A stretch of 53,750 bases of DNA. Source: a virus. The translations under genes and the position numbers were made by a program. Below, in pieces: positions 5,685 through 53,750 of the stretch; the first letter of the stretch is position 1; the number at the start of each line of letters is the position of its first letter. The notes beneath the pieces were generated by a model, which did not search any database, was not told the DNA's origin, and was given only the letters and a program-made list of their open reading frames with translations. The DNA lies in the IMG/VR virus record IMGVR_UViG_3300010413_000043, positions 1 through 53,750 of that record; one strand, given 5' to 3'.

Positions 5685-5717
5685 AACAATCCTTTTTTAT
5701 TAAATCCTTTTTAAAGT

Positions 5718-5760
5718 AAAAAAAGGAAGGAGAAAGGATTTTTAAACCTTCCTTTTTTTT
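5718..5760 (-). terminator. Hairpin plus U-run between the small ORF and the replication genes
   Basis: GGAAGG(5725-5730)/CCTTCC(5747-5752) with a 16-nt loop. It is flanked by A-run and T-run, so it reads as a terminator on both strands. Confidence 0.5.
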
Positions 5761-5797
5761 AATATATCAGCCGGTGCGCTTTCGGCCTTTGGTTTTA

Positions 5798-5828
5798 CAA
5801 ATATAGTTTAAATATCCAGACTATCAAA
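5798..5828 (-). promoter_or_regulatory. Full-consensus Bacteroidota-type promoter (TTTG-N19-TATATTTG)
   Basis: On the minus strand, TTTG (5828-5825), a 19-nt spacer, then TATATTTG (5805-5798). Spacing matches the three early cassettes. Confidence 0.55.
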
Positions 5829-6011: not shown

Positions 6012-6428
6012 TTAAAATGGCAAATCATCTTCTATATTTTCTTGCTGATTAGCAACATTATTCGCATTGTTATTATCACTTTGCGAATTATTTTCGCTTT
6101 GTTTGCTACCTAGCATCTGAACGGTTTGGCATATTATCTCAGTAGTGTAATGTTTAACACCATCTTTATCATCCCACGACCTGGTATGCAAAAAACCTTC
6201 AATATAAAGTTGCATTCCTTTTTTGAAATACTTTTCTGCGACATCTGCAAGCTTATTCTTAATAACAATATTATGCCATTCTGTATGAGTTACTTTTTCG
6301 CCTTGCTTATTTGTATAATTCATGCTAGTTGCAACGCGAAAGTTTGCAATTTTGCCGCCATTTTCAAAGGTTTTTATTTCAGGATCAGCTCCTAAATGTC
6401 CAACGATTATTGATTTATTTATGCTCAT
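6012..6428 (-). CDS. ssb: Single-stranded DNA-binding protein
   Basis: MSINKSIIVGHLGADPEIKTF...WHNIV OB-fold pattern, an N/Q-rich linker and an acidic DDLPF C-terminal tip. Start set at the internal ATG at 6428. Confidence 0.9.
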   Translation of the reverse strand: MSINKSIIVGHLGADPEIKTFENGGKIANFRVATSMNYTNKQGEKVTHTEWHNIVIKNKLADVAEKYFKKGMQLYIEGFLHTRSWDDKDGVKHYTTEIICQTVQMLGSKQSENNSQSDNNNANNVANQQENIEDDLPF

Positions 6429-7125
6429 TTTCGTTATTATTTTTATTGCTGTTAATAATTCTGTAAACTGATGCAATATGAAGCGAAAACATTTGCGAAA
6501 TTTCTTTCGCACTTTTTCCTTCCTGAGAGAGTTTTATTATTCTTTTGTTTCTTTCTTCTATAGAAAATAAATCATCCGGTTTTATTGGTTCATAATTAAT
6601 ATTATCTGATTCATCTTTTATAAAAAGATCTATAGTTGATAAATTCCTTATAATAGATTCACCGAAAGATTCAGAATCTTTTATTGATTGTTTACTATAA
6701 AGATTTTTTTCTTTTTCACTCAATACAAATCCTTTATTTTCATCTTTCAACTTAATATAAGCATACATTATAATAATAAAGCCTGAATATAGCCCATAAT
6801 AAACAGAGGCAAACCATTTCCAAACGTTCTCTATTAATTCTGTGTTGTTATAAAGAAATACACCGATCGTTTCTAAAATGGCCGTTAAAATGACAAATAA
6901 CCAGAATAAACGATCTTTCCTATCGAGTAAAGCAATTATTATTGTTGTTACGATTCCGAAAGCTGCCCCGAAAAGATAAGGAACCAATAATTTAAGATCA
7001 TACCCGAATAAGATAAATAGTTTCGAATCCTTCCCGGGATCAAGAGAGTGCAAAAACTTGCTGTGAGTTATAAAAAGGAATAGGGCTATGAATATTAGCC
7101 CTATCACATAAAGTACCTTTTTCAT
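6415..7125 (-). CDS. Membrane protein with a C-terminal helix-turn-helix
   Basis: About 4 hydrophobic helices in the first 125 aa. The C-terminus (IIKLSQEGKSAKEISQMFSLHIASVYRIINS) resembles a sigma70-r4/resolvase-type HTH. Confidence 0.55.
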   Translation of the reverse strand: MKKVLYVIGLIFIALFLFITHSKFLHSLDPGKDSKLFILFGYDLKLLVPYLFGAAFGIVTTIIIALLDRKDRLFWLFVILTAILETIGVFLYNNTELIENVWKWFASVYYGLYSGFIIIMYAYIKLKDENKGFVLSEKEKNLYSKQSIKDSESFGESIIRNLSTIDLFIKDESDNINYEPIKPDDLFSIEERNKRIIKLSQEGKSAKEISQMFSLHIASVYRIINSNKNNNENEHK

Positions 7126-9952: not shown

Positions 9953-10201
9953 TTAAAGGTTTTTATACTTGTCAATTATTTCTTGAGGGAAAAGCTCATC
10001 TAAGCTTACGCCCAAAACTTGACTAAATTTCATCATCGAATAAATATCGATTGATCTGTTACGATAAGTTGCCAATCTGGCAACTCTTGTCCTGGCTGAT
10101 TCTTTAGAAATATCGGGCCAAATCATGACACCGAGTTTTTCATAATCTAATTGTTCACCGGTCCGCGCATGATAAGCGGCCATAGCTTTTTTTATTTGCA
10201 T
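9953..10201 (-). CDS. XRE/Cro-like HTH transcriptional regulator
   Basis: 82 aa. SKESARTRVARLATYRNRSIDIYSMMKFSQVLGVSLDELF resembles the HTH_3 pattern. It is the second gene after early promoter 1. Confidence 0.6.
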   Translation of the reverse strand: MQIKKAMAAYHARTGEQLDYEKLGVMIWPDISKESARTRVARLATYRNRSIDIYSMMKFSQVLGVSLDELFPQEIIDKYKNL

Positions 10202-10217
10202 ATATAAATTTTAGATT

Positions 10218-10427
10218 TTACCATTTGCCAATATATATTATATCAACTTTATGGCCTGATAAATAAAATTTTACTTCTCTCCAAATTTCAGATAGAGTTT
10301 TATTTTCAAGATATTTATTATTACGATAACGCCAAAATACTCTCATTACAAGCTTCTGAGCTAAATATTTATTACTTCCAACTCCGTATCCTATATCTGT
10401 CCTTGCGTTTATTATTATATTTCTCAT
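10218..10427 (-). CDS. Hypothetical early protein (69 aa)
   Basis: First ORF after promoter cassette 1. ATG at 10427. Confidence 0.6.
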   Translation of the reverse strand: MRNIIINARTDIGYGVGSNKYLAQKLVMRVFWRYRNNKYLENKTLSEIWREVKFYLSGHKVDIIYIGKW

Positions 10428-10510
10428 TGTTATTAATGTTTCGTTTGTTACTTATACGATACAAATATATGAAATGTTACTTTAAATGCAAAGAAATGTT
10501 ACTTTTTTTT
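10428..10510 (-). promoter_or_regulatory. Early promoter-leader cassette 1
   Basis: Minus-strand TTTG (10492-10489), N19, TATATTTG (10469-10462). A 52-nt core is identical to the copies at 47318-47369 and 52375-52426. Confidence 0.75.
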
Positions 10511-10541
10511 AAAAAAAATACCCGGAAATTTATTCCGGGTA
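10511..10541 (-). terminator. Intrinsic terminator ending the late operon
   Basis: TACCCGGA(10519-10526)/TCCGGGTA(10534-10541) with a 7-nt loop, followed by 8 U on the minus strand. Confidence 0.8.
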
Positions 10542-10590
10542 CCTAATAATCAGTAAAAAAGTAATTATATAGCGAGAAAAATTACTCTTC

Positions 10591-10944
10591 TTATTCCTCT
10601 TCATCATCTTTGATAGCAACTATCAAGCTATCTAAGCCGACAAGCATTTCAATTGATTTCTCAATTACTTTCTCAACTTTGTCATTTTCAAGATCAAATT
10701 TTTCCTCGATATAATCTATTAATTCTTCTCTCTCATCATCATCAAGGTCGATAAATTCGGCTTTTATCTGTGTACCTGATTTAATAACTTTTACAATATC
10801 ACCGAATGAACCGGCTCCGATACCTAATGCCTCAGCTACGGATATTTTACCATCATCAACAAGGTTTTTTTCGATTTTCATACCGAAATTAATTGCAGCT
10901 TCTGCAGCAATTTTTAAGTTCTCAATACCTAATTTTCCAGCCAT
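10591..10944 (-). CDS. Acidic hypothetical protein (117 aa), last late gene
   Basis: ORF with an ATG at 10944 and a D/E-rich C-terminus. Confidence 0.6.
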   Translation of the reverse strand: MAGKLGIENLKIAAEAAINFGMKIEKNLVDDGKISVAEALGIGAGSFGDIVKVIKSGTQIKAEFIDLDDDEREELIDYIEEKFDLENDKVEKVIEKSIEMLVGLDSLIVAIKDDEEE

Positions 10945-11001
10945 ACTTTTAAATTTTTGGTTAATATTTAATATAAATTGTTAAAGTTCAAATGTACAAA
11001 A

Positions 11002-11223
11002 TTATTTTTCTATTTCACCTATACATTTTAGTAAAAACCTTCCTGTAAGTCCTGAAAGCCCACTAATCATAATTACCCATCCAGGCAGTGAAATAGCCCC
11101 AGCAACAATGCTTATTGCTGCCCCTAAAAAAACCATACTTTCACTTACTATTTTCACATTTTTAGGTGTCTTTGCTTTATATGCCTCAGATATTAAAGGG
11201 ATGCCTATTTTAACCTGTTTCAT
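11002..11223 (-). CDS. Small membrane protein, holin candidate
   Basis: 73 aa. The hydrophobic stretch MVFLGAAISIVAGAISLPGWVIMISGLSGL could form 1-2 transmembrane helices. Lies in the lysis cassette. Confidence 0.45.
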   Translation of the reverse strand: MKQVKIGIPLISEAYKAKTPKNVKIVSESMVFLGAAISIVAGAISLPGWVIMISGLSGLTGRFLLKCIGEIEK

Positions 11224-11597
11224 AACTTTATTGCTTTACTATATACAAATATACTTAGAAAGGCGAAAAAGCCCCTTAAAACCCAAAATTGCCAATCCGA
11301 CAATAAAGACATTACATCATCATAGATTCCTGATGTGGTACCCACGTAATTTAAATCTAATCCCCCGATCAGATTGTAGCTTAAATCAAATAAAGCTATA
11401 TGCATAAACCAATAAGATAAGCCTAATAAGATTATATAATGCCAGTTAATTTGTTTTTTATACAACAAAGGAATGGCAAAAAGACAAATCTTATATACAT
11501 TTTCAAGAAACTTACTCCAATCTTTCACATTTTCAGCAAATAAAACATCGACATAAGCATCTAAAATAATTAGTAAAATGAATATAATTAGTATCAT
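11220..11597 (-). CDS. Multi-pass membrane protein (125 aa), holin/lysis-associated candidate
   Basis: About 4 hydrophobic helices. ATGA overlap with the next gene. Confidence 0.45.
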   Translation of the reverse strand: MILIIFILLIILDAYVDVLFAENVKDWSKFLENVYKICLFAIPLLYKKQINWHYIILLGLSYWFMHIALFDLSYNLIGGLDLNYVGTTSGIYDDVMSLLSDWQFWVLRGFFAFLSIFVYSKAIKL

Positions 11598-11673
11598 ATT
11601 TTTTGTATTTTAGTCTCGATAATTAATGTTTAATTTTTATTGAATTTGTTTAATTATTGTAAAAATCGGCTTG

Positions 11674-11696
11674 AGCACTGGCATTTTGTCAGTGCT
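11674..11696. terminator. Hairpin after the endolysin stop; its T-run is on the plus strand
   Basis: AGCACTG(11674-11680)/CAGTGCT(11690-11696) with a 9-nt loop, followed by TTTTTTT on the plus strand only. Confidence 0.35.
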
Positions 11697-11700
11697 TTTT

Positions 11701-12342
11701 TTATCCGAATTGGCCAATTAACCATTCAGTTATTTTATCCTCAAAATATTCATTTTGCTTCGGATTAAGTAAAGCCTCCACATCATCTCTATTTGTTTGG
11801 AATTTCCATTCAAGTAAGTTAGCCAAATAATTAGGTTTTACTTTATCATTACCAGCCAAAATAGTAAAGTTTGCTTCCCAATCCGGATCCTTAATCTTTT
11901 CCTTTTCAGATAGCCAATAAGCGGCCCTAAACTTATCATTCGGATACATTACTTTAAAGTAATTAAAAAGGCTCGTTGCAATTGGATCACTTTCATCTTC
12001 GCCCCTTGAAGTCCATACGCTTGATCCCCTAGCTTTTCCCCATCCATCTGTATCACAATTTTCTATTCGTTCAGCATCATTATGCAAACTCAGAACAAAA
12101 GAAAAATCATAATCTTTAACTATTTCATTGTATCGCTGTACCCGTAATGATAAACCGGGTTCATTTGAGTACTGACAGAATGGAGAGAATATATCGAAAT
12201 TAGGGTTCTTAATAATTAAATTCTTTCGAATATTAAAGCACCTTTCACGGGACCAAATCCACTCTTGGTGTCTCCCGTCTGGACTTCTTTTCCCGGGGGT
12301 GTTTTTCCCGTGCGCTGCATCTAATATAATTACTTTTTTCAT
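11701..12342 (-). CDS. N-acetylmuramoyl-L-alanine amidase (endolysin)
   Basis: ILDAAHGKNTPGKRSPDG and LSLHNDAE resemble the Amidase_3 zinc-ligand motifs. Flanked by membrane proteins. Confidence 0.7.
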   Translation of the reverse strand: MKKVIILDAAHGKNTPGKRSPDGRHQEWIWSRERCFNIRKNLIIKNPNFDIFSPFCQYSNEPGLSLRVQRYNEIVKDYDFSFVLSLHNDAERIENCDTDGWGKARGSSVWTSRGEDESDPIATSLFNYFKVMYPNDKFRAAYWLSEKEKIKDPDWEANFTILAGNDKVKPNYLANLLEWKFQTNRDDVEALLNPKQNEYFEDKITEWLIGQFG

Positions 12343-12343
12343 G

Positions 12344-12694
12344 CTATTCTGTTTTTATTACTTTTAATACCAACGTTTCAAGCGAATTAAACCGCGAATC
12401 CATGTGCGCGATAATGTCTTTCTTAATAGTATCATGTTCACGCTTATTCTGGTTATCAATCTCAGTAATACGTTTATGTACTGCTTTGATTTGAATTTTA
12501 TTAGTATCCTTTATGTTTTCAATATCTCCAAAAAGATCCTCCTTAACAGATTTTAGATCTTTATCCACATCTTTTTTTAATGCATATTCCATTACATCTT
12601 TTTTTCTATTTCTTAAAATAGGATATAAAGCACTTACAATCGAAATAGCAAACGCCGAAATAATGCCAAAATTCTGAAGCGTGTCTGATACCAT
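12344..12694 (-). CDS. N-terminally anchored coiled-coil protein (spanin/holin-associated candidate)
   Basis: N-terminal transmembrane segment FGIISAFAISIVSALYPIL followed by a charged coiled coil. Confidence 0.4.
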   Translation of the reverse strand: MVSDTLQNFGIISAFAISIVSALYPILRNRKKDVMEYALKKDVDKDLKSVKEDLFGDIENIKDTNKIQIKAVHKRITEIDNQNKREHDTIKKDIIAHMDSRFNSLETLVLKVIKTE

Positions 12695-15624: not shown

Positions 15625-17064
15625 TTAATTATCCTGTACAGGACTATACTGTATATATGTATTGTCTGCTTTCACAAATATTTGTACAATATCGTCTAAA
15701 CCCAAAATAATTGTTCCACTTGTATTAAAATTACCACCGTCATTTATCATTAATGTATATGTATCTGATGTTCCTATTATTGTATATATTCTACCTATTA
15801 CAGGATTATCAAAATCTGTTAATGTTACAGACGTTGTTGTTCCATCATAGTAATATATCTGTCTACTATTCATGTCTGGCGTAGCGTCTCCATCTGCAAT
15901 TGTTCCAGTAGTATAATTTGATCCATACATAGATAGATTACTTGCTACATTAACAGATCCACCCGTAAAATAATGAACGCAATCTCCGCCGCCAGTTGGC
16001 CCATAAAATATATCCACCTGCCCTGGCTCCTGATTAACAAATTTAATTGCAGTTTCATTTCCTATTATTAACTCGTTTTTATCTGAATTACCATACATAC
16101 TATCCGAAGAAATGGCAACATCTGAACTTATATTATTTGCTATGTTTATGTTAGCTTTATCTGTAAATAAACCTATTTCTCCATCAAGTCCATTTAGACT
16201 AACTTCTGCATAATTTGACCCAGCTTGAGAATGTAAAACAATATCAGACCCAGACGTTCCTGTTATATATGTATTGTCATCAGAACCTGTTAAGCCTGAA
16301 ATATTAATTTCAAAAGTTCCATCTCTGGCAATATAAAAATAATTATACCCATTTCCGTTATAATCACCAAAATGATATGCATCACCATCAAATGAAAATT
16401 CCTGTCCTGTAGTAACATCACTAACTGTCTGAAATCCTCCAGACCCGTCAGATATTTGTATATTTCCCGTAGTCCCTGCCGACTGTCCTGACGTGCAATT
16501 AAGGCAATAGCCTGCCGTATCTGCATAAATAGAACTATCAATATTATTTGTATCAATTTGAGCCCACGTTAATCTTAAGCTATCAGGATCATATATTGGC
16601 ACTGCTAAATAATTCGGAAACCATATTGGCCATAACGAATCAATTGATGATGTATCCATTTGCGCCCATGTCATTTTTCCAGAATCAGGATCAAATATAG
16701 CTGCAGACAAATAATCAGGCACCCAATCAGGGAAAATAGTATCCACATTTGTAGTATAAATTTGAGCCCACGTTAATCTTAAACTATCCGGATCGTAAAT
16801 AGGAGATGCTAAATAATTAGGTAACCAATTTGGAAGTAATCCAAGTTTTATTAAATCACTATATTGAAATACTTCAGGACCTACTTTAATAGAATCAAAC
16901 ACACAAAATTGTATATAACTTGAATCTGTAGTTCCGTAAATTGGACTATTCCAAACTTTTAAATTACCCCAAATGACAACGTCTTTATATAATCTTTCAG
17001 GATTTTGCCCGAATAAATTAAATCCAATTATTAAGGCTGCTATTATTGTAATTATCTTTTTCAT
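15625..17064 (-). CDS. Signal-peptide protein with 3 tandem 34-aa repeats and a G/S/T/N-rich fibre-like C-terminus
   Basis: MKKIITIIAALIIGFNLFGQ signal-like N-terminus. Repeats (PNYLA.PIYDPDSLRLTWAQ) span aa 77-178. Confidence 0.5.
   Translation of the reverse strand: MKKIITIIAALIIGFNLFGQNPERLYKDVVIWGNLKVWNSPIYGTTDSSYIQFCVFDSIKVGPEVFQYSDLIKLGLLPNWLPNYLASPIYDPDSLRLTWAQIYTTNVDTIFPDWVPDYLSAAIFDPDSGKMTWAQMDTSSIDSLWPIWFPNYLAVPIYDPDSLRLTWAQIDTNNIDSSIYADTAGYCLNCTSGQSAGTTGNIQISDGSGGFQTVSDVTTGQEFSFDGDAYHFGDYNGNGYNYFYIARDGTFEINISGLTGSDDNTYITGTSGSDIVLHSQAGSNYAEVSLNGLDGEIGLFTDKANINIANNISSDVAISSDSMYGNSDKNELIIGNETAIKFVNQEPGQVDIFYGPTGGGDCVHYFTGGSVNVASNLSMYGSNYTTGTIADGDATPDMNSRQIYYYDGTTTSVTLTDFDNPVIGRIYTIIGTSDTYTLMINDGGNFNTSGTIILGLDDIVQIFVKADNTYIQYSPVQDN
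16531..16836 (-). repeat. 3 x 102-bp in-frame tandem repeat
   Basis: Encodes LPNWLPNYLASPIYDPDSLRLTWAQIYTTNVDTI / FPDWVPDYLSAAIFDPDSGKMTWAQMDTSSIDSL / WPIWFPNYLAVPIYDPDSLRLTWAQIDTNNIDSS. Confidence 0.85.
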
Positions 17065-20086: not shown

Positions 20087-22800
20087 TATTCAAAAGTATA
20101 ATTGTTTTCATCTTCAAAAGTATAATTATCACTATCCTCATAAACATAATTAAGTGATTCAACATATTCCCGCCTTATAACTTCCCATGTAGCTTTCAAA
20201 GGATAAGATTCCACGTTAAGAGACTTAATAAAACCATTGTATTCTTCTTCATCATGAGTATATCTAATGAATCCATGAGGATCAGAATTCATTGTATTAA
20301 ATATCTCTTGATTTATCTCTTTTTCGAATGTATCTAAAACAGGTATATAGTATTTTCCCGAAAGTTCATCATATTTAATATTATCAATTTCGTTTACAAT
20401 TTTACCGGCCTGATTTGTATATATAATTGAAACACCTTTTTTTAAGCTTAAAAAGCGTATATCTTGGGGATGTTTCCAAAGCATAGGTGTAAGCATAGAC
20501 TTATGTCTTAAAACGTTTTCACGGCCTGTAATGCGTAAATTAAAGTATTGATCTATGTTAACTATACCAGACAATTCAGAATCTCCGCTTTTCCCCTGAA
20601 TTGCTCTTATTCTATCTGTATCAATTATGTAACGGAATTCATCATATTTTGTATCTTCAGTAGAATTTGTAGAATATTGTTTCCTGCGACATAAATCAAT
20701 TGCAATTGAGGCACCATGATAATCAGCTCTCCAATTAACCTCATTTTTTACGGGTTGATTTATTGTATATTCCAACGGCATATTAAATTCACTTACCCCG
20801 TTTAAATCTTCAAAATCAACCTCTGGCCATCCACATTTAATCGAAGGAATATAAGCATCCGGATAAGGTTCGGATTCAAAATTATTAACCTCACCTAAAT
20901 CAAACATAAAATAATTATCCTTAAAAAACTCAGACATAGTTTCAATGAAGAATCTATCATTAACACGATCATAACCTAATCCAACTGGTTCGATTGCGAA
21001 TAATGAATTAAATAAACCGTCAATTGATGCAAGTATACCCTTATCTGGGAATTGCCTTAAATTAAAACCAGATGTTAAGAAAAGATTAGCCCATTTTCCA
21101 TTCACTAAATAAGTCTCATAATCGCTTTCTATATGTCCTAATAATGTGCTATAGATTACTTTATCTGTATCCTGCTCGCTTGTCGCTAATTGTAAAACCT
21201 TTCCGAAAGCCTCATGCAAGAATAAACCTCTTGTATTTGTTTGTTCTACAGATGGGAATATCTCATATCCATTTAGATTAAATAATACATTATTAGAATA
21301 ACTGATTTTATATCCTATAATATCAGTAATTAAATAGATAACATAAAATTTAATATATCCACCGGCAGGTACTTCCCAATCATAAAGCATATTTGATAAA
21401 TCAAATTCTGGATTTATGATCTGTGTTGTGCCTCCTGATTGAGAAAATGTATTTGAATAATTATCTATGTTAATAATTTGTACAGGTATGTCATCTGCAT
21501 CATACACATAAACAATATATGAAATACTGACAAATGCTGAGTTTCCAAATATAGACGGTATTAAATAAAGAGAATTAAATTGTTGTACATCAATATTTGT
21601 TATCCTAAAAATAGTATCATAATCAGTTGTATTCTCATAAATAACACCATCATCGCCATTACCTACAATACGATCACCAATATCATTTATAGTTGTTTCC
21701 TCAAGTGTTGGATACCATTCTACGGGGGTATCATTATTACTCCAAATGATATTATAAAGATGATCTCTTATTCTCATTTTAGTTTCGAATCTGAGATATA
21801 AATCAAGAGGATCAACCTTAATTATTTGCTCGGCAATAGGTGTTAATTGCTTTCCATCATGTGAAATATTAGTAAATAAATCATATTCAACTTCGGACCT
21901 ATCAATTAATTTAGCCTCTTTAGTACCGTCTTTAATACCTATCTCAACAAATCTATCTGTAATCAAGAATTTAACTTTCCCGGGTGTGAAATTCAATATA
22001 CCATCATAGAACTTTACATAATCTCCTGTTTGTGTATTAATTTCATAAATCTCAACAGTTATCTCAGCTAATATGTCGTATAAATCATATTGGTCTTTAA
22101 TAAAATCACCACCCCCATAATTACGAATATACCAACGTAAAGAAACTGCATAATTTCGTAGAATAGAATTATACTTTTTAGATCGTTCCCATTTTATTTG
22201 TAGTTTTTCCCAACCGGCTGGGTTTTCTTTCACCAAATATGTTTCAGATTCTTTAATTAACTCTACCTCATCAATCTCAAAATATACTCCAGCCTGGTTA
22301 ATCTTAAAGTAAAGAACCTCTATTGTATTATCAATCTCAATTGCCTCGGATAAATAAACCTCTGCATTACCGTCATTGTAAGGTAATGTAATTTCATCTT
22401 CTGAGCCTAGTTTAATAGATGATAAGTAGCTATTTGTGCGATATCTGAATCTAACATGGTACCGATAATTTGGATCCATTTCCCCTAGAATAGCGTAAAG
22501 CGTTGCGTGAAGATCCGAAATATCATCAGTAGTTTCGAAACGTTGTGCATTTCCTGTAAAATTATTTCCTGTAACTATTTCAGTTTGTTGGCTTACTATA
22601 TAAGCAATATACCAATTTTGAGCTAACCCATTTGTGTCATTAATCCAATCATATTGATCTGTGCCTCCTCCATTTTCAACACCTTCAGCCGGGGGATTAT
22701 TTTTAAATACATATTTATAAAAAGTATTTTTATACTCATCACCGAAATAAGTTAAGTAATCGTTATAACTACCGTTAAAATATGTATCTAAATATGCCAT
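20086..22800 (-). CDS. Large distal-tail/baseplate-hub-like protein with an N-terminal jelly-roll (CBM-like) domain
   Basis: Directly follows the tape measure gene, with its ATG at 22800 overlapping the TMP TGA. The N-terminal domain ends in YFEIDEVELIKE. Confidence 0.45.
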   Translation of the reverse strand: MAYLDTYFNGSYNDYLTYFGDEYKNTFYKYVFKNNPPAEGVENGGGTDQYDWINDTNGLAQNWYIAYIVSQQTEIVTGNNFTGNAQRFETTDDISDLHATLYAILGEMDPNYRYHVRFRYRTNSYLSSIKLGSEDEITLPYNDGNAEVYLSEAIEIDNTIEVLYFKINQAGVYFEIDEVELIKESETYLVKENPAGWEKLQIKWERSKKYNSILRNYAVSLRWYIRNYGGGDFIKDQYDLYDILAEITVEIYEINTQTGDYVKFYDGILNFTPGKVKFLITDRFVEIGIKDGTKEAKLIDRSEVEYDLFTNISHDGKQLTPIAEQIIKVDPLDLYLRFETKMRIRDHLYNIIWSNNDTPVEWYPTLEETTINDIGDRIVGNGDDGVIYENTTDYDTIFRITNIDVQQFNSLYLIPSIFGNSAFVSISYIVYVYDADDIPVQIINIDNYSNTFSQSGGTTQIINPEFDLSNMLYDWEVPAGGYIKFYVIYLITDIIGYKISYSNNVLFNLNGYEIFPSVEQTNTRGLFLHEAFGKVLQLATSEQDTDKVIYSTLLGHIESDYETYLVNGKWANLFLTSGFNLRQFPDKGILASIDGLFNSLFAIEPVGLGYDRVNDRFFIETMSEFFKDNYFMFDLGEVNNFESEPYPDAYIPSIKCGWPEVDFEDLNGVSEFNMPLEYTINQPVKNEVNWRADYHGASIAIDLCRRKQYSTNSTEDTKYDEFRYIIDTDRIRAIQGKSGDSELSGIVNIDQYFNLRITGRENVLRHKSMLTPMLWKHPQDIRFLSLKKGVSIIYTNQAGKIVNEIDNIKYDELSGKYYIPVLDTFEKEINQEIFNTMNSDPHGFIRYTHDEEEYNGFIKSLNVESYPLKATWEVIRREYVESLNYVYEDSDNYTFEDENNYTFE

Positions 22801-38058: not shown

Positions 38059-38100
38059 AATGTTACGTTTATGTAACAAAAATACTTAATTTTTTGGAAT

Positions 38101-38128
38101 AAAAAAACCCTGTGAAGCACTCACAGGG
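38101..38128 (-). terminator. Strong intrinsic terminator immediately upstream of the late operon
   Basis: CCCTGTGA(38108-38115)/TCACAGGG(38121-38128) with a 5-nt loop, followed by 7 U on the minus strand (plus-strand A-run 38101-38107). Confidence 0.8.
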
Positions 38129-38195
38129 TAACGAAACATTTAACTGAAAAGCCGGTTTAAAAATAAACCCCAGAATAATTGCCTTACAATCTATA

Positions 38196-38203
38196 CAAAT
38201 ATA
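38196..38203 (-). promoter_or_regulatory. -7-type promoter box TATATTTG (no matching -33)
   Basis: The minus-strand 13-mer TGTATATTTGTAT is identical to the one at 52517-52529. ATATTTGTAT is shared with the three early cassettes. Confidence 0.45.
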
Positions 38204-42252: not shown

Positions 42253-42762
42253 TTATTTTTTTTGCATTAATAATAATTGATTCTGAGCAATTTTAGCAAT
42301 TTCATAAGCTACTTTTATCTTAGAATACTCATTGCTTGTATTGTCAGTTTCATACGATTTGTTTTCTTTAAAAAAAATATCCCATTCTTTTACACTTTTT
42401 TCTTTGCAGCCTATTTTAATTAAATCTTTGAATACTATTATATTCCATTTGCAATAAAGATTTAATATTATAGCTCCGACATCCTGATTGCCTCTGATAT
42501 CCTGATTGCCTATGACATACTGATAGCCTATGACATCCTGATTGCCTATGACATACTGATAGCCTATGACATCCTGATTGCCTCCGACATACTGATAGCC
42601 TATGACATACTGATATCCTCTGACATTCTGATAGCCTATGACATTCTGATTGCCTTTTGTTATTAAATTACCTTCAACGTATATATTGTTACATATTATG
42701 TTTTTTGTAATTATTGTTTCACCAGATATATACACGTTTTCATTTAGCATATTTATATCCAT
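42253..42762 (-). CDS. Hexapeptide-repeat (beta-helix-like) protein
   Basis: About 10 consecutive hexapeptides (VIGYQY / VIGNQD / VRGYQY). 169 aa. Confidence 0.6.
   Translation of the reverse strand: MDINMLNENVYISGETIITKNIICNNIYVEGNLITKGNQNVIGYQNVRGYQYVIGYQYVGGNQDVIGYQYVIGNQDVIGYQYVIGNQDIRGNQDVGAIILNLYCKWNIIVFKDLIKIGCKEKSVKEWDIFFKENKSYETDNTSNEYSKIKVAYEIAKIAQNQLLLMQKK
42478..42655 (-). repeat. About 10 x 18-bp tandem repeat (coding)
   Basis: Plus strand reads gacatcctgattgcctat / gacatactgatagcctat alternating with point variants. Confidence 0.9.
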
Positions 42763-45710: not shown

Positions 45711-46895
45711 TTATGAATGAGCTTTGAAGTTATAAATAGGCTTAATTACTTCAATCACATCTACCGTGTCTTTTATAGCTTCTAAAATTTCGTTCATTGG
45801 CTTATATGCGTTCGGAGCTTCATCTAATGTTTCTGATAAAACAGAAGTTGAATAAACATCTTTCATTTGCTCTTTAAATTCGTCAAAATCAAGTTGTCTA
45901 TGTGCTTCTTTTCTGCCCATCAAACGCCCTGCTCCGTGTGGTGCTGAATAATTCCAATCCTCATTTCCTTTGCCTTTTGCAATAATTGATCCGTCACGCA
46001 TATTAATTGGAATCAATAACACTTCTCCTTTCTCAGCAGACACAGCACCTTTTCGCAACATCATTCTGTTAAAATCAATATAGTTGTGAATTGTTTCAAA
46101 AGAGTGCATTGCACTTAGTCCTGCTTCTCTAAGTATGATTTCAGCCATAGTTTTACGATTTAAAATAGCATACTCTTGCATTACTTTCATATCATGCATG
46201 TAGTTTTCAAAATCAGCTCCTGTTAAATAGGCTAAGTCATTATTAATATTTGGCTTTTTAAGTTTTTTCAACTCTTTACCAATTTCATTTTGTCTGCCTT
46301 CTTTTTTCAGGCGTTCAATAAGCTCTTCACGTTCTTTTGAATTGTCGGTCAAATTTCCAATTGCAATGTCTTGGTAATATTTTGCAACTTGTCCACCGAT
46401 ATTTCGAGAGCCTGAATGAATAACTAAATACAAATCGCCTTTTTCATTTTTACCAACTTCAATAAAATGGTTTCCACCACCTAATGAGCCTGTTGATAAT
46501 CTTGCACGGTCAATATTTAGATTTTTAGCAATAAGTCTATCGAAGTCAAATTCTGCTTTTGGTTCAGTGTGTATATTAAAGCCATTTGGAATAAACTCAT
46601 TTATTACAGCATCTAATTTTTGCAAATCAATTTCGTTGTCTGCTAACATTACTGTAAGCATTCCGCAGCCAATATCAACACCAACTAAATTAGGAGTAAT
46701 CTTATCTTTAATTTCCATAGTTGTGCCAATTGTACAGCCTACGCCAGCATGGCAGTCAGGCATAATTCTAATTTTAGAATCCTTGTAAGGTTCAAATTTT
46801 CCAAGTTCTTTAATCTGTTCTAAAGCAACGTCTTCTAAAGTAGTTGCGTAAATTTTAATATCGTTTCCGTTATTTCTTTTAATTATTTTTGCCAT
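45711..46895 (-). CDS. rtcB: RNA 3'-phosphate/5'-OH ligase RtcB
   Basis: PDCHAGVGCTIGT, GGGNHFIE, HSGSR and SAPHGAGR are the conserved RtcB metal/GMP-His motifs. 394 aa. Confidence 0.9.
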   Translation of the reverse strand: MAKIIKRNNGNDIKIYATTLEDVALEQIKELGKFEPYKDSKIRIMPDCHAGVGCTIGTTMEIKDKITPNLVGVDIGCGMLTVMLADNEIDLQKLDAVINEFIPNGFNIHTEPKAEFDFDRLIAKNLNIDRARLSTGSLGGGNHFIEVGKNEKGDLYLVIHSGSRNIGGQVAKYYQDIAIGNLTDNSKEREELIERLKKEGRQNEIGKELKKLKKPNINNDLAYLTGADFENYMHDMKVMQEYAILNRKTMAEIILREAGLSAMHSFETIHNYIDFNRMMLRKGAVSAEKGEVLLIPINMRDGSIIAKGKGNEDWNYSAPHGAGRLMGRKEAHRQLDFDEFKEQMKDVYSTSVLSETLDEAPNAYKPMNEILEAIKDTVDVIEVIKPIYNFKAHS

Positions 46896-47059: not shown

Positions 47060-47269
47060 TTAAAACAATTCAAATTTTCCACCTTTATGATTTCCGGATG
47101 CTCTCTGATCTGCTAATTCTCTTACACCTCTATTTGCCTTAATTTTGTTCAGGCAGTAATTATATCTATCTATAATTGACTGTTGTTTGTAAAGGTGATT
47201 AATTGCCTCGTCTGATACTGATGTTAGTATAGCTGCGTCTTTTTCGATGTTTTTTGTAAATGAGTTCAT
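47060..47269 (-). CDS. Hypothetical early protein (69 aa)
   Basis: First ORF after promoter cassette 2, with the ATG at 47269 (MNSFTKNIEKD). The listed upstream extension starts at a TTG inside the promoter. Confidence 0.55.
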   Translation of the reverse strand: MNSFTKNIEKDAAILTSVSDEAINHLYKQQSIIDRYNYCLNKIKANRGVRELADQRASGNHKGGKFELF

Positions 47270-47370
47270 GATGTTTCGTTTAATGTTTCGTTTAATGTTT
47301 CGTTTGTTACTTATACGATACAAATATATGAAATGTTACTTTAAATGCAAAGAAATGTTACTTTTTTTTT
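47270..47370 (-). promoter_or_regulatory. Early promoter-leader cassette 2 (3 copies of the 12-nt leader repeat)
   Basis: Minus-strand TTTG (47351-47348), N19, TATATTTG (47328-47321). The leader is AAACGAAACATT x3 (47271-47306). Confidence 0.75.
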
Positions 47371-47380
47371 ATTTGATATA

Positions 47381-47402
47381 AAAAAACCAGGTTTTATCCT
47401 GG
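47381..47402 (-). terminator. Weak hairpin plus U-run after the TerS-like gene
   Basis: CCAGG(47387-47391)/CCTGG(47398-47402) with a 6-nt loop, followed by 6 U on the minus strand. Confidence 0.5.
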
Positions 47403-47421: not shown

Positions 47422-47853
47422 CTATTTTTTATACTTGCTTTTTGATGATTCTTTCAATTTTAATAATAGGTCTGGATCGACATCATTAAGATTTATATTG
47501 TTCTCAGTTTTTCCAATACCTTTATTCTGATTTATCACAATGTTAGGATCTTTAGTAAATCCTCGGCTCCTTCCTTTCTGATTTAAATAGTACTCAACGG
47601 CTTTTAATCTGATTGCATCATTGTCAGATGTCATGAGATCTATTATTGTTCCCTCGGCTATATCCAGATTCCTTTCTTCTATTTCTATTAAGATATCAGA
47701 TGGTAGATTCAAAGCCCTTTTTCTTACTGCTTGTCTTGTAAGATGTATACCAAGATCCTTTTGAATGTGTGCTGCAGTCTGAGCGTATAGGCCAGAATTT
47801 TTTCGTAAGTATTCTATGAATTTCTTTCTTGATAGTTTAGGAGTAGGAGCCAT
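47422..47853 (-). CDS. Terminase small subunit candidate
   Basis: N-terminal HTH-like segment (SGLYAQTAAHIQKDLGIHLTRQAVRKRA), then DAIRLKAVEYYLNQKGRSRGF, a pattern typical of TerS oligomerisation cores. 143 aa. Confidence 0.45.
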   Translation of the reverse strand: MAPTPKLSRKKFIEYLRKNSGLYAQTAAHIQKDLGIHLTRQAVRKRALNLPSDILIEIEERNLDIAEGTIIDLMTSDNDAIRLKAVEYYLNQKGRSRGFTKDPNIVINQNKGIGKTENNINLNDVDPDLLLKLKESSKSKYKK

Positions 47854-48587: not shown

Positions 48588-48831
48588 TTTTAATTATTAC
48601 TTTTTCGAATTCTTTAATCGGGTCAAGTCCTTTGAATTTTAAAAACATGAAGCATGTAGTTGCTAGGTCTGTAGCTTCTTCAATTTCGTTTTCTTCGCTG
48701 TATGCGTTTTTAAGCTCATTAAACTCTTCTTCAATTTTATCAAAAAAGTCTTTTTCTGTTGTATGTTCATTAATGAGGCCACGATTTTTTATGGCCTCGT
48801 ATGAGCGGTTTATTAATGTTTTCATATCCAT
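48547..48831 (-). CDS. MazG-like nucleotide pyrophosphohydrolase candidate
   Basis: A 94-aa all-helical pattern with EE..E and E..D acidic pairs (KIEEEFNELKNA...EIEEATDLA), resembling MazG/dUTPase_2. Confidence 0.4.
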   Translation of the reverse strand: MDMKTLINRSYEAIKNRGLINEHTTEKDFFDKIEEEFNELKNAYSEENEIEEATDLATTCFMFLKFKGLDPIKEFEKVIIKNENRANDYQSRIN

Positions 48832-51134
48832 GATAGTTGTCCTTTCTGCTCTATTGCATTTCTATGATTTTTTACATTGACATTAAAATATGATTCTTTT
48901 AATTCAATTGATATTGATTTACGATTCATTTTTAATGCCTGATACCCTTCTGAACCAATTCCTCCGAATGGGCTCAATAATGTTTCACCTTTATTTGAAT
49001 ATAAAGTAATTAGTCTTTCAATAACAGGAAGTTGCAGAGGACAAATGTGTTTTTCATCATTATTTGCTCTGGCATTAATATATTGAAGCGTATCTGTTGC
49101 GTTTATATCCATCCATACAGGAGACGCATATCTTTGCCAAATATGATGAGAATATTGCTCTTTTCTTGAATATTTACTTTCTGGATCATACCCCCAGAAT
49201 TCATTAAATCCTGATATGTCACGGGGAAATTTATCAAAATCTCCCATTGGTATGTAATTTTCAAGTAAGTCATGTTCAACAGGAACTTCATTTTCATGTT
49301 TAGTTTTAAAACATTGAATTAAATCAAATATTCCAGTTCTAACCTGAATACTATCCTTACATAATTGTTGATGAGCTAATCCTTTTGTTTTTGTTCTTAC
49401 AGCTGCTAATAATGGATCTTTCCATATAGCGTGTTCTGAATGTAAAAACATATCTTCATCCTCGAATAAATCACCTATCATTGAATTAAATCTTCTTAAC
49501 CCTATATAACCATCACGGCTTTTTAATGTTGGTAAATTCATTGAATGAACACATATACATCTTCCAGGCTTAATTACTCTTTTTATTTCTTTAACTAAAT
49601 ACTTGAATTGTTGTTTGAATTGTTCATAATCAGATACATTACCCATATCCTCAATATGATTCGAATAAACATATAAATCTGCAAATGGAGGAGAAAATAC
49701 CATTATGTCGACTGAATTGTCTGGTATTTCTTTTATTCTTTGAACACAATCACCACGCATAAGCCAGTAATTATCTGTTTTTACGTCTGATGTTTTATCT
49801 ACTTTCACAGTTAATTTGTTATTTAAATTCTTGTTTACTGATTTTGTCATTAATTCTTGCATTTCATTAAATTTTTTATGTTTTTCTTGTTGAGTTTTAG
49901 TTACATTAATCATTCTATCAGTTGTAATCATATAACAATTTACAGGCTCAGTTCTTCCATATCTCCATGATCTACGCATTGCTTGATATGATTGTTCAAA
50001 ACTGAAATCAACAGAATTAAATATTTGATAACCGCAATTTTGATAATTCAATCCCATTGATGCAATTGATTGTTTAGTTATCAATATTTCATATTCTTTG
50101 TGAGCAAATCCAATTAAATCAGCCTCTTTTTTTTCTTGTTTATCTGAGCCCTGAACATTTCTACAGTCATATCCTAATTTAGTTAATTGCTTATAAATAT
50201 TATCAGCCTCAATGTTTTGTTTAGTCCAAATAATTATTTGCTCATTTTTATGTATTTCTTCTTTAATTATTGATATTGTTTGATTTATTCTTTCTTTTTC
50301 TGTATCCCTTAAACTTTGATTATAGTCCGTAGCATTAACAGCAAGTCCAGGAAATAACATTCCTTCGGGTATTGGTGTACTAACTTGTTTCTCAATTATG
50401 TTTAATTTAGGTAAATCGAATCCATTCATATTAAATCCTATATCTTTAGGATGAGAATACATAATTGCCCATGTACTTACAAATTCATAAAATCTATCTA
50501 TTGCATGACCTTTAAGTCTCCATTTACTTCCTTTTTGTTTTTTAGAATCATTAACAAAATACATTGCAAGCATTTCATCGTATGTCATTACATCTAAGAA
50601 TTCACAATGATTACCTAGTTCTGTTGGATCATTAGGACTTGGAGTAGCTGAAAAACAAAATTTATATGGAGTTTCTTTAAATTTTTCAATTAATAAATTT
50701 CTATATTTTCCAGTTTGATTTTTCAGTATTGAACTTTCATCTAAACAAATACAAGAGTAAATTGAAGTATCTATATTTTCAAGTTGCTCGTAATTTGATA
50801 TTTGAATTGGTGATGTATTATTTTCACACCACCTCTTAACTTTAATATTAAACTTATTACCTTCTTCTATTGTTTGGGCTGATACAGCAAGTGGTGATAA
50901 TATTAATGAAGGTTTATTAGTATATTTATTTACTTGATATGCAATATCTAACTGCATAGCTGTTTTACCTTGGCCTGTATTGGCAAATATTGCATATTTA
51001 CCAGCCATTAAAGCTCTTTTAATTGTGAATTTCTGAAATTCAAATAATTTATCATTAAGTTCATTTTCAGAAATATCAAATCCAGAATAAATAATATTCT
51101 TCTGCTTACTATTTAAAAATTCGTTATAATTCAT
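48822..51134 (-). CDS. SNF2/DEAD-type helicase fused to an N6-adenine/N4-cytosine DNA methyltransferase
   Basis: Helicase motifs ANTGQGKT, LDESS, SAT and QAMRRSWRYGR are followed by MTase motif IV FSPPF and a C-terminal motif I SPFGGIGSEG (beta-class order). Confidence 0.8.
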   Translation of the reverse strand: MNYNEFLNSKQKNIIYSGFDISENELNDKLFEFQKFTIKRALMAGKYAIFANTGQGKTAMQLDIAYQVNKYTNKPSLILSPLAVSAQTIEEGNKFNIKVKRWCENNTSPIQISNYEQLENIDTSIYSCICLDESSILKNQTGKYRNLLIEKFKETPYKFCFSATPSPNDPTELGNHCEFLDVMTYDEMLAMYFVNDSKKQKGSKWRLKGHAIDRFYEFVSTWAIMYSHPKDIGFNMNGFDLPKLNIIEKQVSTPIPEGMLFPGLAVNATDYNQSLRDTEKERINQTISIIKEEIHKNEQIIIWTKQNIEADNIYKQLTKLGYDCRNVQGSDKQEKKEADLIGFAHKEYEILITKQSIASMGLNYQNCGYQIFNSVDFSFEQSYQAMRRSWRYGRTEPVNCYMITTDRMINVTKTQQEKHKKFNEMQELMTKSVNKNLNNKLTVKVDKTSDVKTDNYWLMRGDCVQRIKEIPDNSVDIMVFSPPFADLYVYSNHIEDMGNVSDYEQFKQQFKYLVKEIKRVIKPGRCICVHSMNLPTLKSRDGYIGLRRFNSMIGDLFEDEDMFLHSEHAIWKDPLLAAVRTKTKGLAHQQLCKDSIQVRTGIFDLIQCFKTKHENEVPVEHDLLENYIPMGDFDKFPRDISGFNEFWGYDPESKYSRKEQYSHHIWQRYASPVWMDINATDTLQYINARANNDEKHICPLQLPVIERLITLYSNKGETLLSPFGGIGSEGYQALKMNRKSISIELKESYFNVNVKNHRNAIEQKGQLSWI

Positions 51135-52008: not shown

Positions 52009-52338
52009 TTAATTTAATTTGTTATTTATGTGAATTCTTACTTCAATTCCAGCTTTTTGAGCAGCTTTAGCAATCTTGAAAATATGATCAGAATTATTGA
52101 TCTTTTTTGTATTTTCAGTTTTATAAAAATCATCGATAATAATTCTGAAGTTCGGATGGTTAGAGTCTGTTAATTGTCTAAATCTAATATGTGTTAATAC
52201 CTCATAAATATTACAACACCCAAAACCATAACATTCAATAGGATAATTCCATGATGTGAAATTCATTGTTTCATATGCTATTTGTAAATAAATCATGTCT
52301 GATTCATATACTTTATCAATAATCTTTAGCTTTTTCAT
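52009..52338 (-). CDS. Hypothetical early protein (109 aa)
   Basis: First ORF after promoter cassette 3. ATG at 52338. Confidence 0.6.
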   Translation of the reverse strand: MKKLKIIDKVYESDMIYLQIAYETMNFTSWNYPIECYGFGCCNIYEVLTHIRFRQLTDSNHPNFRIIIDDFYKTENTKKINNSDHIFKIAKAAQKAGIEVRIHINNKLN

Positions 52339-52426
52339 GATGTTTCGTTTAATGTTTCGTTTCTATTGTATACTATACAAATATATGAAATGTTACTTTA
52401 AATGCAAAGAAATGTTACTTTTTTTT
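52339..52426 (-). promoter_or_regulatory. Early promoter-leader cassette 3 (2 copies of the leader repeat)
   Basis: Minus-strand TTTG (52408-52405), N19, TATATTTG (52385-52378). Same 52-nt core as the other two cassettes. Confidence 0.75.
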
Positions 52427-52435
52427 AAAAAAAAT

Positions 52436-52464
52436 AAAAAAAAGCCTGGTTGGGTTCCAGGCTT
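52436..52464 (-). terminator. Intrinsic terminator ending early unit 1
   Basis: AAGCCTGG(52442-52449)/CCAGGCTT(52457-52464) with a 7-nt loop, followed by a U-run on the minus strand. Confidence 0.8.
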
Positions 52465-52519
52465 GAAATGTTCATTTAAAGAGTGTCTAAATAGGTGTAT
52501 TAACCGTCTGTCATCAATA

Positions 52520-52527
52520 CAAATATA
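52520..52527 (-). promoter_or_regulatory. -7-type box TATATTTG between a gene stop and a terminator
   Basis: The TGTATATTTGTAT 13-mer is identical to the one at 38193-38205. No -33 TTTG at N19. Confidence 0.4.
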
Positions 52528-53516: not shown

Positions 53517-53750
53517 GTCTCAAAATGTTAGTTAATATTTCGTCAATAGGATATATTTTCAATTCTCTATGTGTGTGCTCATGTTCTGCAGCCGTATGGC
53601 ATTTGTGACAAAGTAAACGACTATTTCGCGGATCGTGAGCCATTTCAGGAGCTCCACCTCTTGTAATTATATGCGATACATAACCGGACCAATATTGTTG
53701 CAATGGTTTAACACATTCCTCACATATTTGTAATTTATTCTCATAACACC
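53470..53750 (-). CDS. HNH endonuclease, 3' part of the junction-spanning gene (see 1-340)
   Basis: HIITRGGAPEMAHDPRNSRLLCHKCH. The reading frame stays open to the window end and continues at 340-145 on the circle. Confidence 0.7.
   Translation of the reverse strand, partial: CYENKLQICEECVKPLQQYWSGYVSHIITRGGAPEMAHDPRNSRLLCHKCHTAAEHEHTHRELKIYPIDEILTNILRHEYSTNKETRRIEVL
53607..53750. repeat. Terminal direct repeat copy 2 (identical to 1-144)
   Basis: 144/144 identity with the window start. Confidence 0.95.

Follow-up and report, generated by a model that had tools for sequence, protein, structure and literature searches.

A repeated, probable terminator, promoter and leader cassette ahead of the non-structural operons of a siphovirus-like phage with a predicted Bacteroidota host

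Three near-identical intergenic segments, all on the minus strand of one viral genome, raise the question of what such a repeat does for the phage and what has kept it uniform. The genome is the IMG/VR virus record IMGVR_UViG_3300010413_000043, analyzed here over its full 53,750 nucleotides (positions 1 to 53,750, hereafter the window), and the segments, designated c1, c2, and c3, lie at 10428-10541, 47270-47402, and 52339-52464. An initial annotation had described them as terminator-promoter-leader cassettes that partition the genome into early units. Our analysis indicates that each cassette is likely to be a composite module in which a terminator, a Bacteroidota sigma-A promoter, and a leader are combined, the three modules heading the non-structural operons.

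The copies were first delimited by exact matching. The results revealed that an identical 52-nt core occurs at three sites, all on the minus strand (Table 1), as the initial annotation had reported, and that no match arises in 100 dinucleotide-preserving shuffles even when up to 3 mismatches are allowed. Compared in pairs, the copies are exactly identical over 78 nt (c1 and c2), 62 nt (c1 and c3), and 52 nt (c2 and c3). The homology begins sharply at an A8 run and continues into the leader, and upstream of the A-run the similarity is at the random level; the hairpins that precede the copies are therefore not homologous, and the repeated part consists of the promoter and the leader. Independent Logan assemblies of the same phage (L004 and L058) break within the cassette, which indicates that the repeats are real and argues against an artefact of a single assembler. 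Logan SRR14699974 is so far the one metagenome known to contain this phage.

A hairpin followed by a U-run was found directly upstream of all three copies, in agreement with the earlier description, and the three hairpins are mutually unrelated in sequence. Each shows the properties expected of an intrinsic terminator, namely, a GC-rich hairpin and an immediate U-run, located on the coding strand after a stop codon. A strict terminator scan detected only four intergenic terminators on the coding strand, three of which stand before the cassettes and one before the promoter of the terminase gene TerS.

The promoter assignment was examined against the published Bacteroidota consensus, which comprises a -33 element (TTTG) and a -7 element (TAnnTTTG) with T-12, A-11, T-8, T-7, T-6, and G-5 near-invariant, excludes G at -10 and -9, and is AT-rich in the -18 and -28 regions; in Flavobacterium johnsoniae, the -7 motif has been refined to TAHHTTTG (PMC6847099). 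Every copy contains TTTG-N19-TATATTTG (10492-10462, 47351-47321, and 52408-52378). In the core, the A-tract falls at approximately -53 to -46 and TTTG at -35 to -32, followed by the 19-nt spacer and by TATATTTG at -12 to -5, and the -28 and -18 regions are AT-rich as in the consensus. The spacing, the TAHHTTTG form of the -7 box, and the upstream A-tract all match, and the proposal that the core represents the Bacteroidota sigma-A consensus was thereby borne out. With the start set 5 nt beyond the G that ends the -7 box, transcription is predicted to begin at 10457, 47316, and 52373, yielding 5' untranslated regions (UTRs) of 30, 47, and 35 nt. Across the genome, TAHHTTTG is enriched in coding-strand intergenic DNA, with 10 of 35 matches falling in the non-coding 6.7% of the genome, and all four coding-strand matches to the two-box pattern are intergenic.

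Downstream of the core, the leaders are built from a 12-nt unit, AACGAAACATTA, which is present once in c1 and is repeated in tandem in c2 (three copies) and c3 (two copies), reaching the ATG. The leaders are A/C-rich, lack a Shine-Dalgarno (SD) sequence, and carry an A at -3. Their folding energy is approximately 0 kcal/mol, and for c2, c3, and L059_a (a cassette of the related phage L059, described below), none of the 200 shuffles folds less well. Where a host does without SD pairing, it is the absence of structure and the A residues upstream that tune initiation (PMC6847099), and unstructured, A/C-rich leaders of this type would suit such a host. The ATGs at 10427, 47269, and 52338 lie 31, 48, and 36 nt past the end of the core, consistent with the 25-50 nt stated previously for the start of a small ORFan. 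The first open reading frames (ORFs), of 69, 69, and 109 aa, matched no Pfam or PHROG family. No paralogy was detected between the first ORFans of c1 and c2 (E = 4.8), and the c3 ORFan, compared by eye only, showed no obvious similarity to them.

Table 1. Coordinates of the cassettes and of associated features in the window.
Feature	Position	Strand	Details
c1 terminator hairpin	10517..10543	-	Closes the structural/lysis operon; -17.1 kcal/mol, z -3.6; U-run to 10511
c1 core	10459..10510	-	A8 tract; box1 AAAGTAACATTTC 10505-10493; -33 TTTG 10492-10489; box2 10483-10471; -7 TATATTTG 10469-10462
c1 predicted 5'UTR, 30 nt	10428..10457	-	Start predicted at 10457; one AACGAAACAT unit 10445-10436; A at -3; minimum free energy ~0 kcal/mol
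69-aa ORFan	10218..10427	-	First gene of the recombination/replication operon
82-aa XRE/Cro/C-protein-like helix-turn-helix protein	9953..10201	-	Second gene after c1; candidate regulator; pLDDT 85.5
c2 terminator, weak	47387..47402	-	5-bp stem and U7; -7.2 kcal/mol
c2 core	47318..47369	-	box1 47364-47352; -33 47351-47348; box2 47342-47330; -7 47328-47321
c2 predicted 5'UTR, 47 nt	47270..47316	-	Three tandem 12-nt units (AACGAAACAT at 47304, 47292, 47280); abuts ATG
69-aa ORFan	47060..47269	-	First gene of the RtcB operon
RtcB	45711-46895	-	c2 operon
c3 terminator	52442..52464	-	-12.4 kcal/mol; also closes a ~80-nt promoter-to-terminator unit from the -7 box at 52527-52520
c3 core	52375..52426	-	box1 52421-52409; -33 52408-52405; box2 52399-52387; -7 52385-52378
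c3 predicted 5'UTR, 35 nt	52339..52373	-	Two tandem 12-nt units; start region AGTA, not CGTA
109-aa ORFan	52009..52338	-	First gene of the SNF2-methyltransferase operon
SNF2 helicase-methyltransferase fusion	48822-51134	-	c3 operon
Fourth boundary, head of the late operon	38059..38203	-	-7 box TATATTTG 38203-38196; terminator 38129-38107; -7 box TATTTTTG 38084-38077
236-aa protein	6415-7125	-	Four N-terminal transmembrane helices, C-terminal helix-turn-helix; weak HTH_23 and Sigma70_r4_2 matches

The place of the cassettes in the genome was then considered. The window ends in a 144-bp terminal overlap (1-144 = 53607-53750) and therefore represents a circularly assembled genome of approximately 53.6 kb, with a GC content of approximately 31% and all genes on the minus strand of the window. 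Genes for TerL, the portal, the major capsid protein, and the tape measure mark a siphovirus-like phage, and an amidase endolysin gene is located at 11701-12342. An SD-like 4-mer motif precedes just 4 of the 73 genes, and A is strongly enriched at -3, -6, and -11 to -14 of the gene starts. The DnaB homologues, which apart from that of L059 are 47-54% identical, all derive from Bacteroidota, Bacteroidales, or Bacteroides where their source is named. From the few SD motifs, the pattern of A residues at start codons, and the names attached to the DnaB homologues, we infer that the host belongs to the Bacteroidota.

The c1 operon comprises two small genes followed by Sak4, a PDDEXK protein, an exonuclease, a single-stranded DNA-binding protein (SSB), a DnaD-like initiator, DnaB, an HNH protein, a resolvase, and Dam. 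The c2 operon carries an ORFan, RtcB, methyltransferases, and a PAPS-reductase-like gene and extends to the terminator at 38.1 kb, and the c3 operon consists of ORFans and an SNF2 helicase-methyltransferase fusion (anti-defence). The structural and lysis block, spanning 27 kb, has its own terminator and a different promoter at 38.1 kb. Because the three cassette terminators are accompanied by a fourth ahead of the terminase promoter, the genome is divided into four units, namely, three non-structural operons delimited by the cassettes and the structural/lysis block. The earlier view of the cassettes as dividers of the genome into early units was thus right about the unit boundaries and wrong about their number, the units being four and not three; the term "early" would apply to the cassette operons on the basis of their gene content only.

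To account for these features, we propose a cassette made up of three parts. An intrinsic terminator, different in sequence at each copy, would halt transcription arriving from the preceding operon; a strong promoter of the Bacteroidota sigma-A type would be recognized by the primary sigma factor of the host; and a leader of 30-47 nt, A/C-rich, SD-free, and unstructured, would permit efficient translation initiation in a host without SD pairing. Three such copies would drive all the non-structural genes from one promoter type and would allow these genes to be switched on jointly once the host RNA polymerase meets the DNA. The copies would have arisen by duplication, and homologous recombination or gene conversion would have kept their perfect identity over 52-78 nt. 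The shared homology could further let the cassettes serve as linkers for module exchange, as has been proposed for the promoter-early stem-loops (PeSLs) of T4-like myoviruses (Arbiol et al. 2010, PMC2839356; Comeau et al. 2014, PMC4122927).

Whether this architecture is retained elsewhere could be examined in one syntenic relative, L059 (ENA ERZ23490721 scaffold_1, 52,227 nt), the DnaB and Sak4 of which are 78% and 71% identical to those of the window. L059 contains three homologous cassettes, at 2869-2932, 21630-21693, and, in a more diverged form, 16427-16479. Each has its own, differing terminator (-12.7, -16.5, and -14.4 kcal/mol), a promoter region, and the ATG of a small ORF, and the leaders are CA-rich ((CAA)n) and, according to the folds for copies a and b, unstructured. 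Since the architecture has been kept in six instances in two phages and the terminator and leader sequences have not, selection on function can be argued.

Particular parts of the promoter region have also been kept. Across the six cassettes, GTAACA in the spacer, xGTA in the start region, and the TA of the -7 box are invariant; CGTA is found in five of the six, c3 having AGTA. The flanking genes, the terminators, and even the -33 and -7 boxes vary. The pattern GTAAC-N16/17-CGTA matches the cassettes only, with 2 matches in the window (0.22 expected) and 3 in L059 (0.11 expected). Each core in the window moreover holds an exact 13-nt direct repeat, two copies of AAAGTAACATTTC at a spacing of 22 nt (approximately -48 to -36 and -26 to -14), and a further GTAxxA around +1. 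The initial annotation had concluded that the conservation of the core implies selection on more than the two boxes. The identity of the three paralogues alone does not bear this out; it is probably the product of duplication or gene conversion, an economical explanation for a phage with a Sak4, an exonuclease, and an SSB of its own. The retention of GTAACA and CGTA in six cassettes of two phages does speak for the conclusion and suggests, from the sequences compared, a second recognition layer with its parts 16-17 nt apart, either an extracytoplasmic function (ECF)-like promoter or operators for a Cro-like protein.

Several observations weigh against the reading of the cassette as a sigma-A promoter module that insulates operons and links modules. 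The terminator of c2 is weak (-7.2 kcal/mol) and leaves the insulation of the operons incomplete, and the genome as a whole shows no enrichment of the full TTTG-N17-21-TAnnTTTG pattern (6 matches against 3.7 expected). The sigma-A boxes of L059 are imperfect (TAATTTAG), with GTAACA and CGTACAAT intact, and in L059_c the GTAACA and CGTA blocks are intact where the -33 and -7 boxes are degenerate and shifted by 2 nt; sigma-A recognition may not be the sole, or even the main, constraint. Neither a plain promoter nor gene conversion explains the internal 13-nt direct repeat. The evidence for recombination consists of one comparison between two genomes, and the cassettes number three here, compared with the dozens of PeSLs in T4-like phages.

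Among the alternative explanations, one holds that the cassettes have been kept mainly as recombination linkers of the PeSL type. The promoter would be necessary, and the long identity would serve exchange or result from it, allowing ORFan and accessory modules to be swapped, deleted, or inserted together with their own terminator and promoter. The protein homology between the window and L059 does begin or end at cassettes. Upstream of c1 and L059_a, the lysis/structural block is unrelated, as is the first ORF after the cassette, and the second ORF and the replication module are homologous; a homologue of the gene just upstream of c2 (47422-47853) is found two genes upstream of L059_b; and c3 with its SNF2-methyltransferase module has no counterpart in L059. 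The SNF2-methyltransferase gene moves by itself between unrelated phages, many other contigs hold an RtcB of 85-96% identity, the recombination proteins Sak4, exonuclease, and SSB are encoded by the phage itself, and a precedent exists (PMC2839356). Nevertheless, a single relative was available for comparison, and recombination between c2 and c1 would delete essential structural genes. We regard a primary role as linkers as possible but clearly less probable than that of the promoter module.

A second alternative, which we likewise hold only tentatively, treats the GTAACA-type boxes as phased operators through which a phage regulator would shut off or tune the three promoters at once by feedback. 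The boxes lie at approximately -45, -23, and -1 in the window and at approximately -23 and -1 in L059, at a spacing of 22-23 nt. The exact 13-nt direct repeat in every copy is in line with this arrangement, as is the degenerate motif AA[AC]G[AT]AACA[TA], found at 15 coding-strand sites where 2.6 are expected, 12 of them in cassettes; the spacer box is also kept in L059. The best candidate for the regulator is the Cro/C-protein-like 82-aa protein encoded two genes downstream of c1, which is conserved at the same position in L059 and whose confident structural model has XRE-type DNA binders as its top folds, namely, C.Csp231I (solved on operators), the N-terminal domain of lambda cI, SinR, and P22 c2. 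These Foldseek matches have weak E-values (0.03-1), however, and the protein has no sequence-level family match. In addition, XRE dimers usually bind inverted rather than direct repeats, box1 is absent from L059, and the membrane-anchored helix-turn-helix protein at 6415-7125 is an alternative candidate binder. This 236-aa protein, conserved in L059 within the replication module, appears from its sequence to be a DNA-binding protein anchored in the membrane.

The same conserved blocks can be read as a promoter for an ECF (group 4) sigma factor, with GTAAC and a T-tract as the -35 element, a spacer of 16-17 nt, and CGTA as the -10 element. Such a promoter would be read by a host ECF factor or by an unrecognized phage sigma factor and would overlap or take over from the sigma-A boxes, for example, to keep early and middle operons running once the host sigma-A is shut off. 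ECF promoters typically have AAC in the -35 element with a T-tract just downstream, a -10 element of CGTA, CGTC, or CGAC, and a spacer of 14-17 nt (PMC5758882), and by the criteria of that study, AAC and CGT 14-17 nt apart are found in five of the six cassettes. The likeness to ECF promoters such as that of Bacillus subtilis sigma-W (PMC5758882) thus extends to GTAAC with the T-tract, the spacer, and CGTA. The invariance of GTAACA, the occurrence of CGTA in five of six cassettes at a fixed spacing in two phages, the restriction of the pattern to cassettes, and the persistence of both blocks in L059_c where the sigma-A boxes decay all favor this reading. By contrast, one copy (c3) has AGTA, the frame overlaps a perfect sigma-A promoter, and searches of the window proteins against Pfam, PHROGs, and the PDB sequences recognized no cognate sigma factor; no phage RNA polymerase was found among these proteins either. 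The sole weak Sigma70_r4_2 match (E = 0.09) belongs to the 236-aa protein with four N-terminal membrane helices. Moreover, the likeness was noticed post hoc, and it was judged by the criteria of PMC5758882. An ECF promoter at this site appears unlikely.

Further candidate elements of control lie outside the cassettes. Each of three additional perfect -7 boxes (TATATTTGTA) has a hairpin with a U-run 75-95 nt downstream. One such unit, 52527 to 52442, supplies the terminator of c3; three hairpins are predicted in it (-21 kcal/mol, z -4.8), and the 52436-52527 segment, in which neither an Rfam match nor an ORF was found, is a small-RNA candidate. Another, 5805 to ~5715, lies ahead of the initiator gene, and the third, 38203 to 38107, would yield an RNA of approximately 90 nt directly ahead of the TerS promoter, where the leader AAACGTAACATT abuts the TerS ATG at 38058. 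The predicted RNA at 38 kb contains AAUGUUUCGUU (38140-38130), which is predicted to be single-stranded and complements the cassette leader unit exactly over 11 nt. On the plus strand, the degenerate box/leader motif is matched at only two sites, this segment being one of them, and it alone matches the leader 10-mer exactly. When all coding-strand windows are scored for duplex energy with this RNA, the cassette leaders come within the top ~1% or better but are not uniquely best; the suggestion of an anti-leader RNA draws only on the exact 11-nt complementarity and on the single-stranded position of that stretch. If transcription reads through, the AAUGUUUCGUU stretch can pair around the TerS start. 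The RNA could act in trans on the leaders, could mask the TerS start in cis, or could belong to an antitermination unit resembling lambda PR'.

In phage lambda, late control involves PR', the 6S RNA, and tR'. The fourth boundary is similar in that a strong promoter, a short RNA, and a strong terminator immediately precede the terminase genes, and it differs in that a second promoter follows the terminator and that no Q-like protein was identified. A combined scheme can be conceived in which the cassette is a multi-input switch that integrates GTAAC-N16/17-CGTA and the boxes, serving either as an ECF-type promoter or as an operator array for the 82-aa protein, the anti-leader RNA (~38191 to 38100) directed at the 12-nt leader units, and cis masking of TerS in read-through transcripts. 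We consider this scheme rather improbable. If it were true, the phage would re-program three non-structural operons at once, and an RNA from the late region would silence the translation of early operons as late transcription begins.

Database searches were performed for related cassettes. The L059-type cassette pattern had no match in IMG/VR, and no Rfam family matched anywhere in the window. IMG/VR loci retrieved through the SNF2-methyltransferase gene (L005-L017) were set aside as relatives because they share that single gene only. TerL relatives, at only 36% identity, were uninformative; RtcB relatives were numerous, but this gene moves among unrelated phages, and no cassette was found upstream of RtcB in them. 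No repeated cassettes were found in the Sak4 relatives L061, L063, and L064. In L059 itself, the DnaB orthologue (10001-12484) contains a LAGLIDADG/Hom_end intein and measures 827 aa, compared with 477 aa in the window, and the replication module has extra HNH and AP2 endonuclease genes.

One of the set-aside loci, L008, which shares only the SNF2-methyltransferase, has repeats of its own. Its motifs (AACATGTT-N5-AACATGTTTTG) are not homologous to the window cassette and were rejected as such. They form part of five promoter-like cassettes at 1926, 9891, 13972, 16745, and 21509, in which AACATGTT-N5-AACATGTTTTG is followed by 20-24 nt, TAnnTTTG, a leader with AAAACGAT, and the ATG. Judging from L008, promoter modules that are repeated and have a palindromic pair upstream may be common in such phages.

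The idea that the repeat is a MITE-like mobile element, a set of replication iterons, or a packaging signal instead of a promoter is highly improbable: although GTAACATTTC-N12-GTAACATTTC at 22-nt spacing recurs in iteron-like arrays of unrelated metagenomic and genomic contigs, these arrays share only 20 specified bases (<=33/52 identical to the core) and lack promoter boxes; exact and two-box searches, which otherwise returned only chance AT-rich matches, found no core copy in IMG/VR, the JGI metagenomes, the GTDB genomes, or cultured phages, so the widespread mobile repeat that the initial annotation had named as fatal to its reading did not appear in these four public collections; no terminal inverted repeats or target-site duplications were seen on reading the flanks and in the alignment, no inverted-repeat scan having been run; the repeat is always intergenic, in sense orientation, and between a terminator and an ATG; and a better origin candidate adjoins the initiator gene at ~5.7 kb. 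That region (5700-5828, minus strand), just upstream of the DnaD-like initiator gene, carries a fourth full TTTG-N19-TATATTTG, followed by a long A/T-flanked hairpin (GGAAGG...CCTTCC, T-run) and repeated AAAAAGGATT motifs, and may be a replication origin or a regulated leader.

A motif related to the leader unit is more widely associated with gene starts. The motif AACGW (AACGA or AACGT) is found within 25 nt upstream of 15 of the 73 starts, compared with ~4% expected, an approximately 5-fold enrichment. The sequence AACGNNACAT abuts the ATG of five genes, those of c1-c3, TerS (38069), and an HNH-like ORF across the contig junction, and each of the five is the first gene after a hairpin. The HNH-like ORF (~165 aa, ATG near 338, minus strand), which spans the junction and was missed by the ORF listing, is preceded by a hairpin (CGGGGG...CCCCCG) and the leader-like AAAAAAACGAGACATG. 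An AAAACGA(T) motif also precedes ATGs in the unrelated phage L008. In this SD-less setting, AACGW may mark gene starts in a manner peculiar to the host or to this phage group. A possible parallel is offered by the start-associated sequence (SAS) and extended SAS (ESAS) of Cluster K mycobacteriophages, a short asymmetric motif located a few nt upstream of the ATGs of non-structural genes (PMC3203893). Like the SAS, the motif of the window has one orientation, lies close to the ATG, and could be bound by a host or phage factor; unlike the SAS, which has an SD-like AGGAG core and occurs 10-19 times per genome, it is SD-free, in tandem, and tied to a promoter.

Other features of the window concern individual genes. 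The SNF2 helicase-methyltransferase fusion shares 61-73% identity with proteins of otherwise unrelated IMG/VR phages as a single-gene module, and the contigs carrying RtcB at 85-96% identity are likewise unrelated; judged by these identities, both look like highly mobile counter-defence genes. An 18-nt tandem repeat of ~10 copies (42442-42691) lies within the ORF at 42253-42762 and encodes hexapeptide repeats. Three 102-nt repeats (16536-16833) lie within the ORF at 15625-17064, which probably encodes a tail-fibre-like protein.

For the biology of such phages, the genome offers a compact example in which one promoter-leader module is used three times together with four terminators and a separate late-control region. 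Our searches found no literature on the transcriptional organization of Bacteroidota phages outside the crAss-like phages. The 52-nt core with its unstructured leader could be a strong, portable expression part for Bacteroidota, a group that lacks SD-based tools. Set against L059, the window suggests that linker cassettes akin to PeSLs have a part in shaping the mosaicism of Bacteroidota siphoviruses as well, and the GTAACA/CGTA frame, the Cro-like regulator, and the anti-leader RNA point to additional layers of control. The unexplained residue is made up of this frame, the direct repeat within the core, the 12-mers at gene starts, and the short RNA complementary to the leader unit.

Set beside plain Bacteroidota sigma-A promoters, the cassettes differ in that the surrounding 40 nt are identical in three copies and that the internal 13-nt direct repeat and the GTAACA...CGTA frame fall outside the described consensus. 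The closest functional resemblance is to the PeSLs. In both cases, an intergenic composite of ~100 bp joins a stem-loop terminator to a strong early promoter for a host sigma factor with an AT-rich upstream region, the start of an ORFan follows, and the element is repeated within one genome at the borders of variable content (three copies in the window and three or more in L059, each before an ORFan), where it has been proposed to insulate transcription and to permit modular shuffling. The differences are also clear, given that the promoter here has Bacteroidota -33/-7 boxes instead of the sigma-70 -35/-10 boxes, the stem-loops differ in sequence from copy to copy and in every case precede the promoter, the leader is SD-free with tandem 12-nt units, and the phage is siphovirus-like with a genome of 53.6 kb and not a T4-like myovirus. 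PeSL copies recombine, producing indels and mini-circles, whereas a recombination role is suggested here by one pairwise mosaic comparison, and the two elements resemble each other in function only, with no sequence homology.

Halovirus HF2 provides a second parallel. Its intergenic repeats (class I, 58 bp; class II, 29 bp) have been shown to carry promoters (PMC8707807), and like the window cassettes they are dispersed, near-identical intergenic copies whose positions are conserved among related viruses. They differ in their archaeal host and promoter type, and no associated terminators or repeated leaders have been described for them. No current concept is overturned by these comparisons; the value of the locus lies in a clean new instance with a few conserved features that await an explanation. 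By analogy, the cassettes can be regarded as a mostly ordinary element, the equivalent in a Bacteroidota phage of the PeSLs known from T4-like phages and of HF2's promoter repeats.

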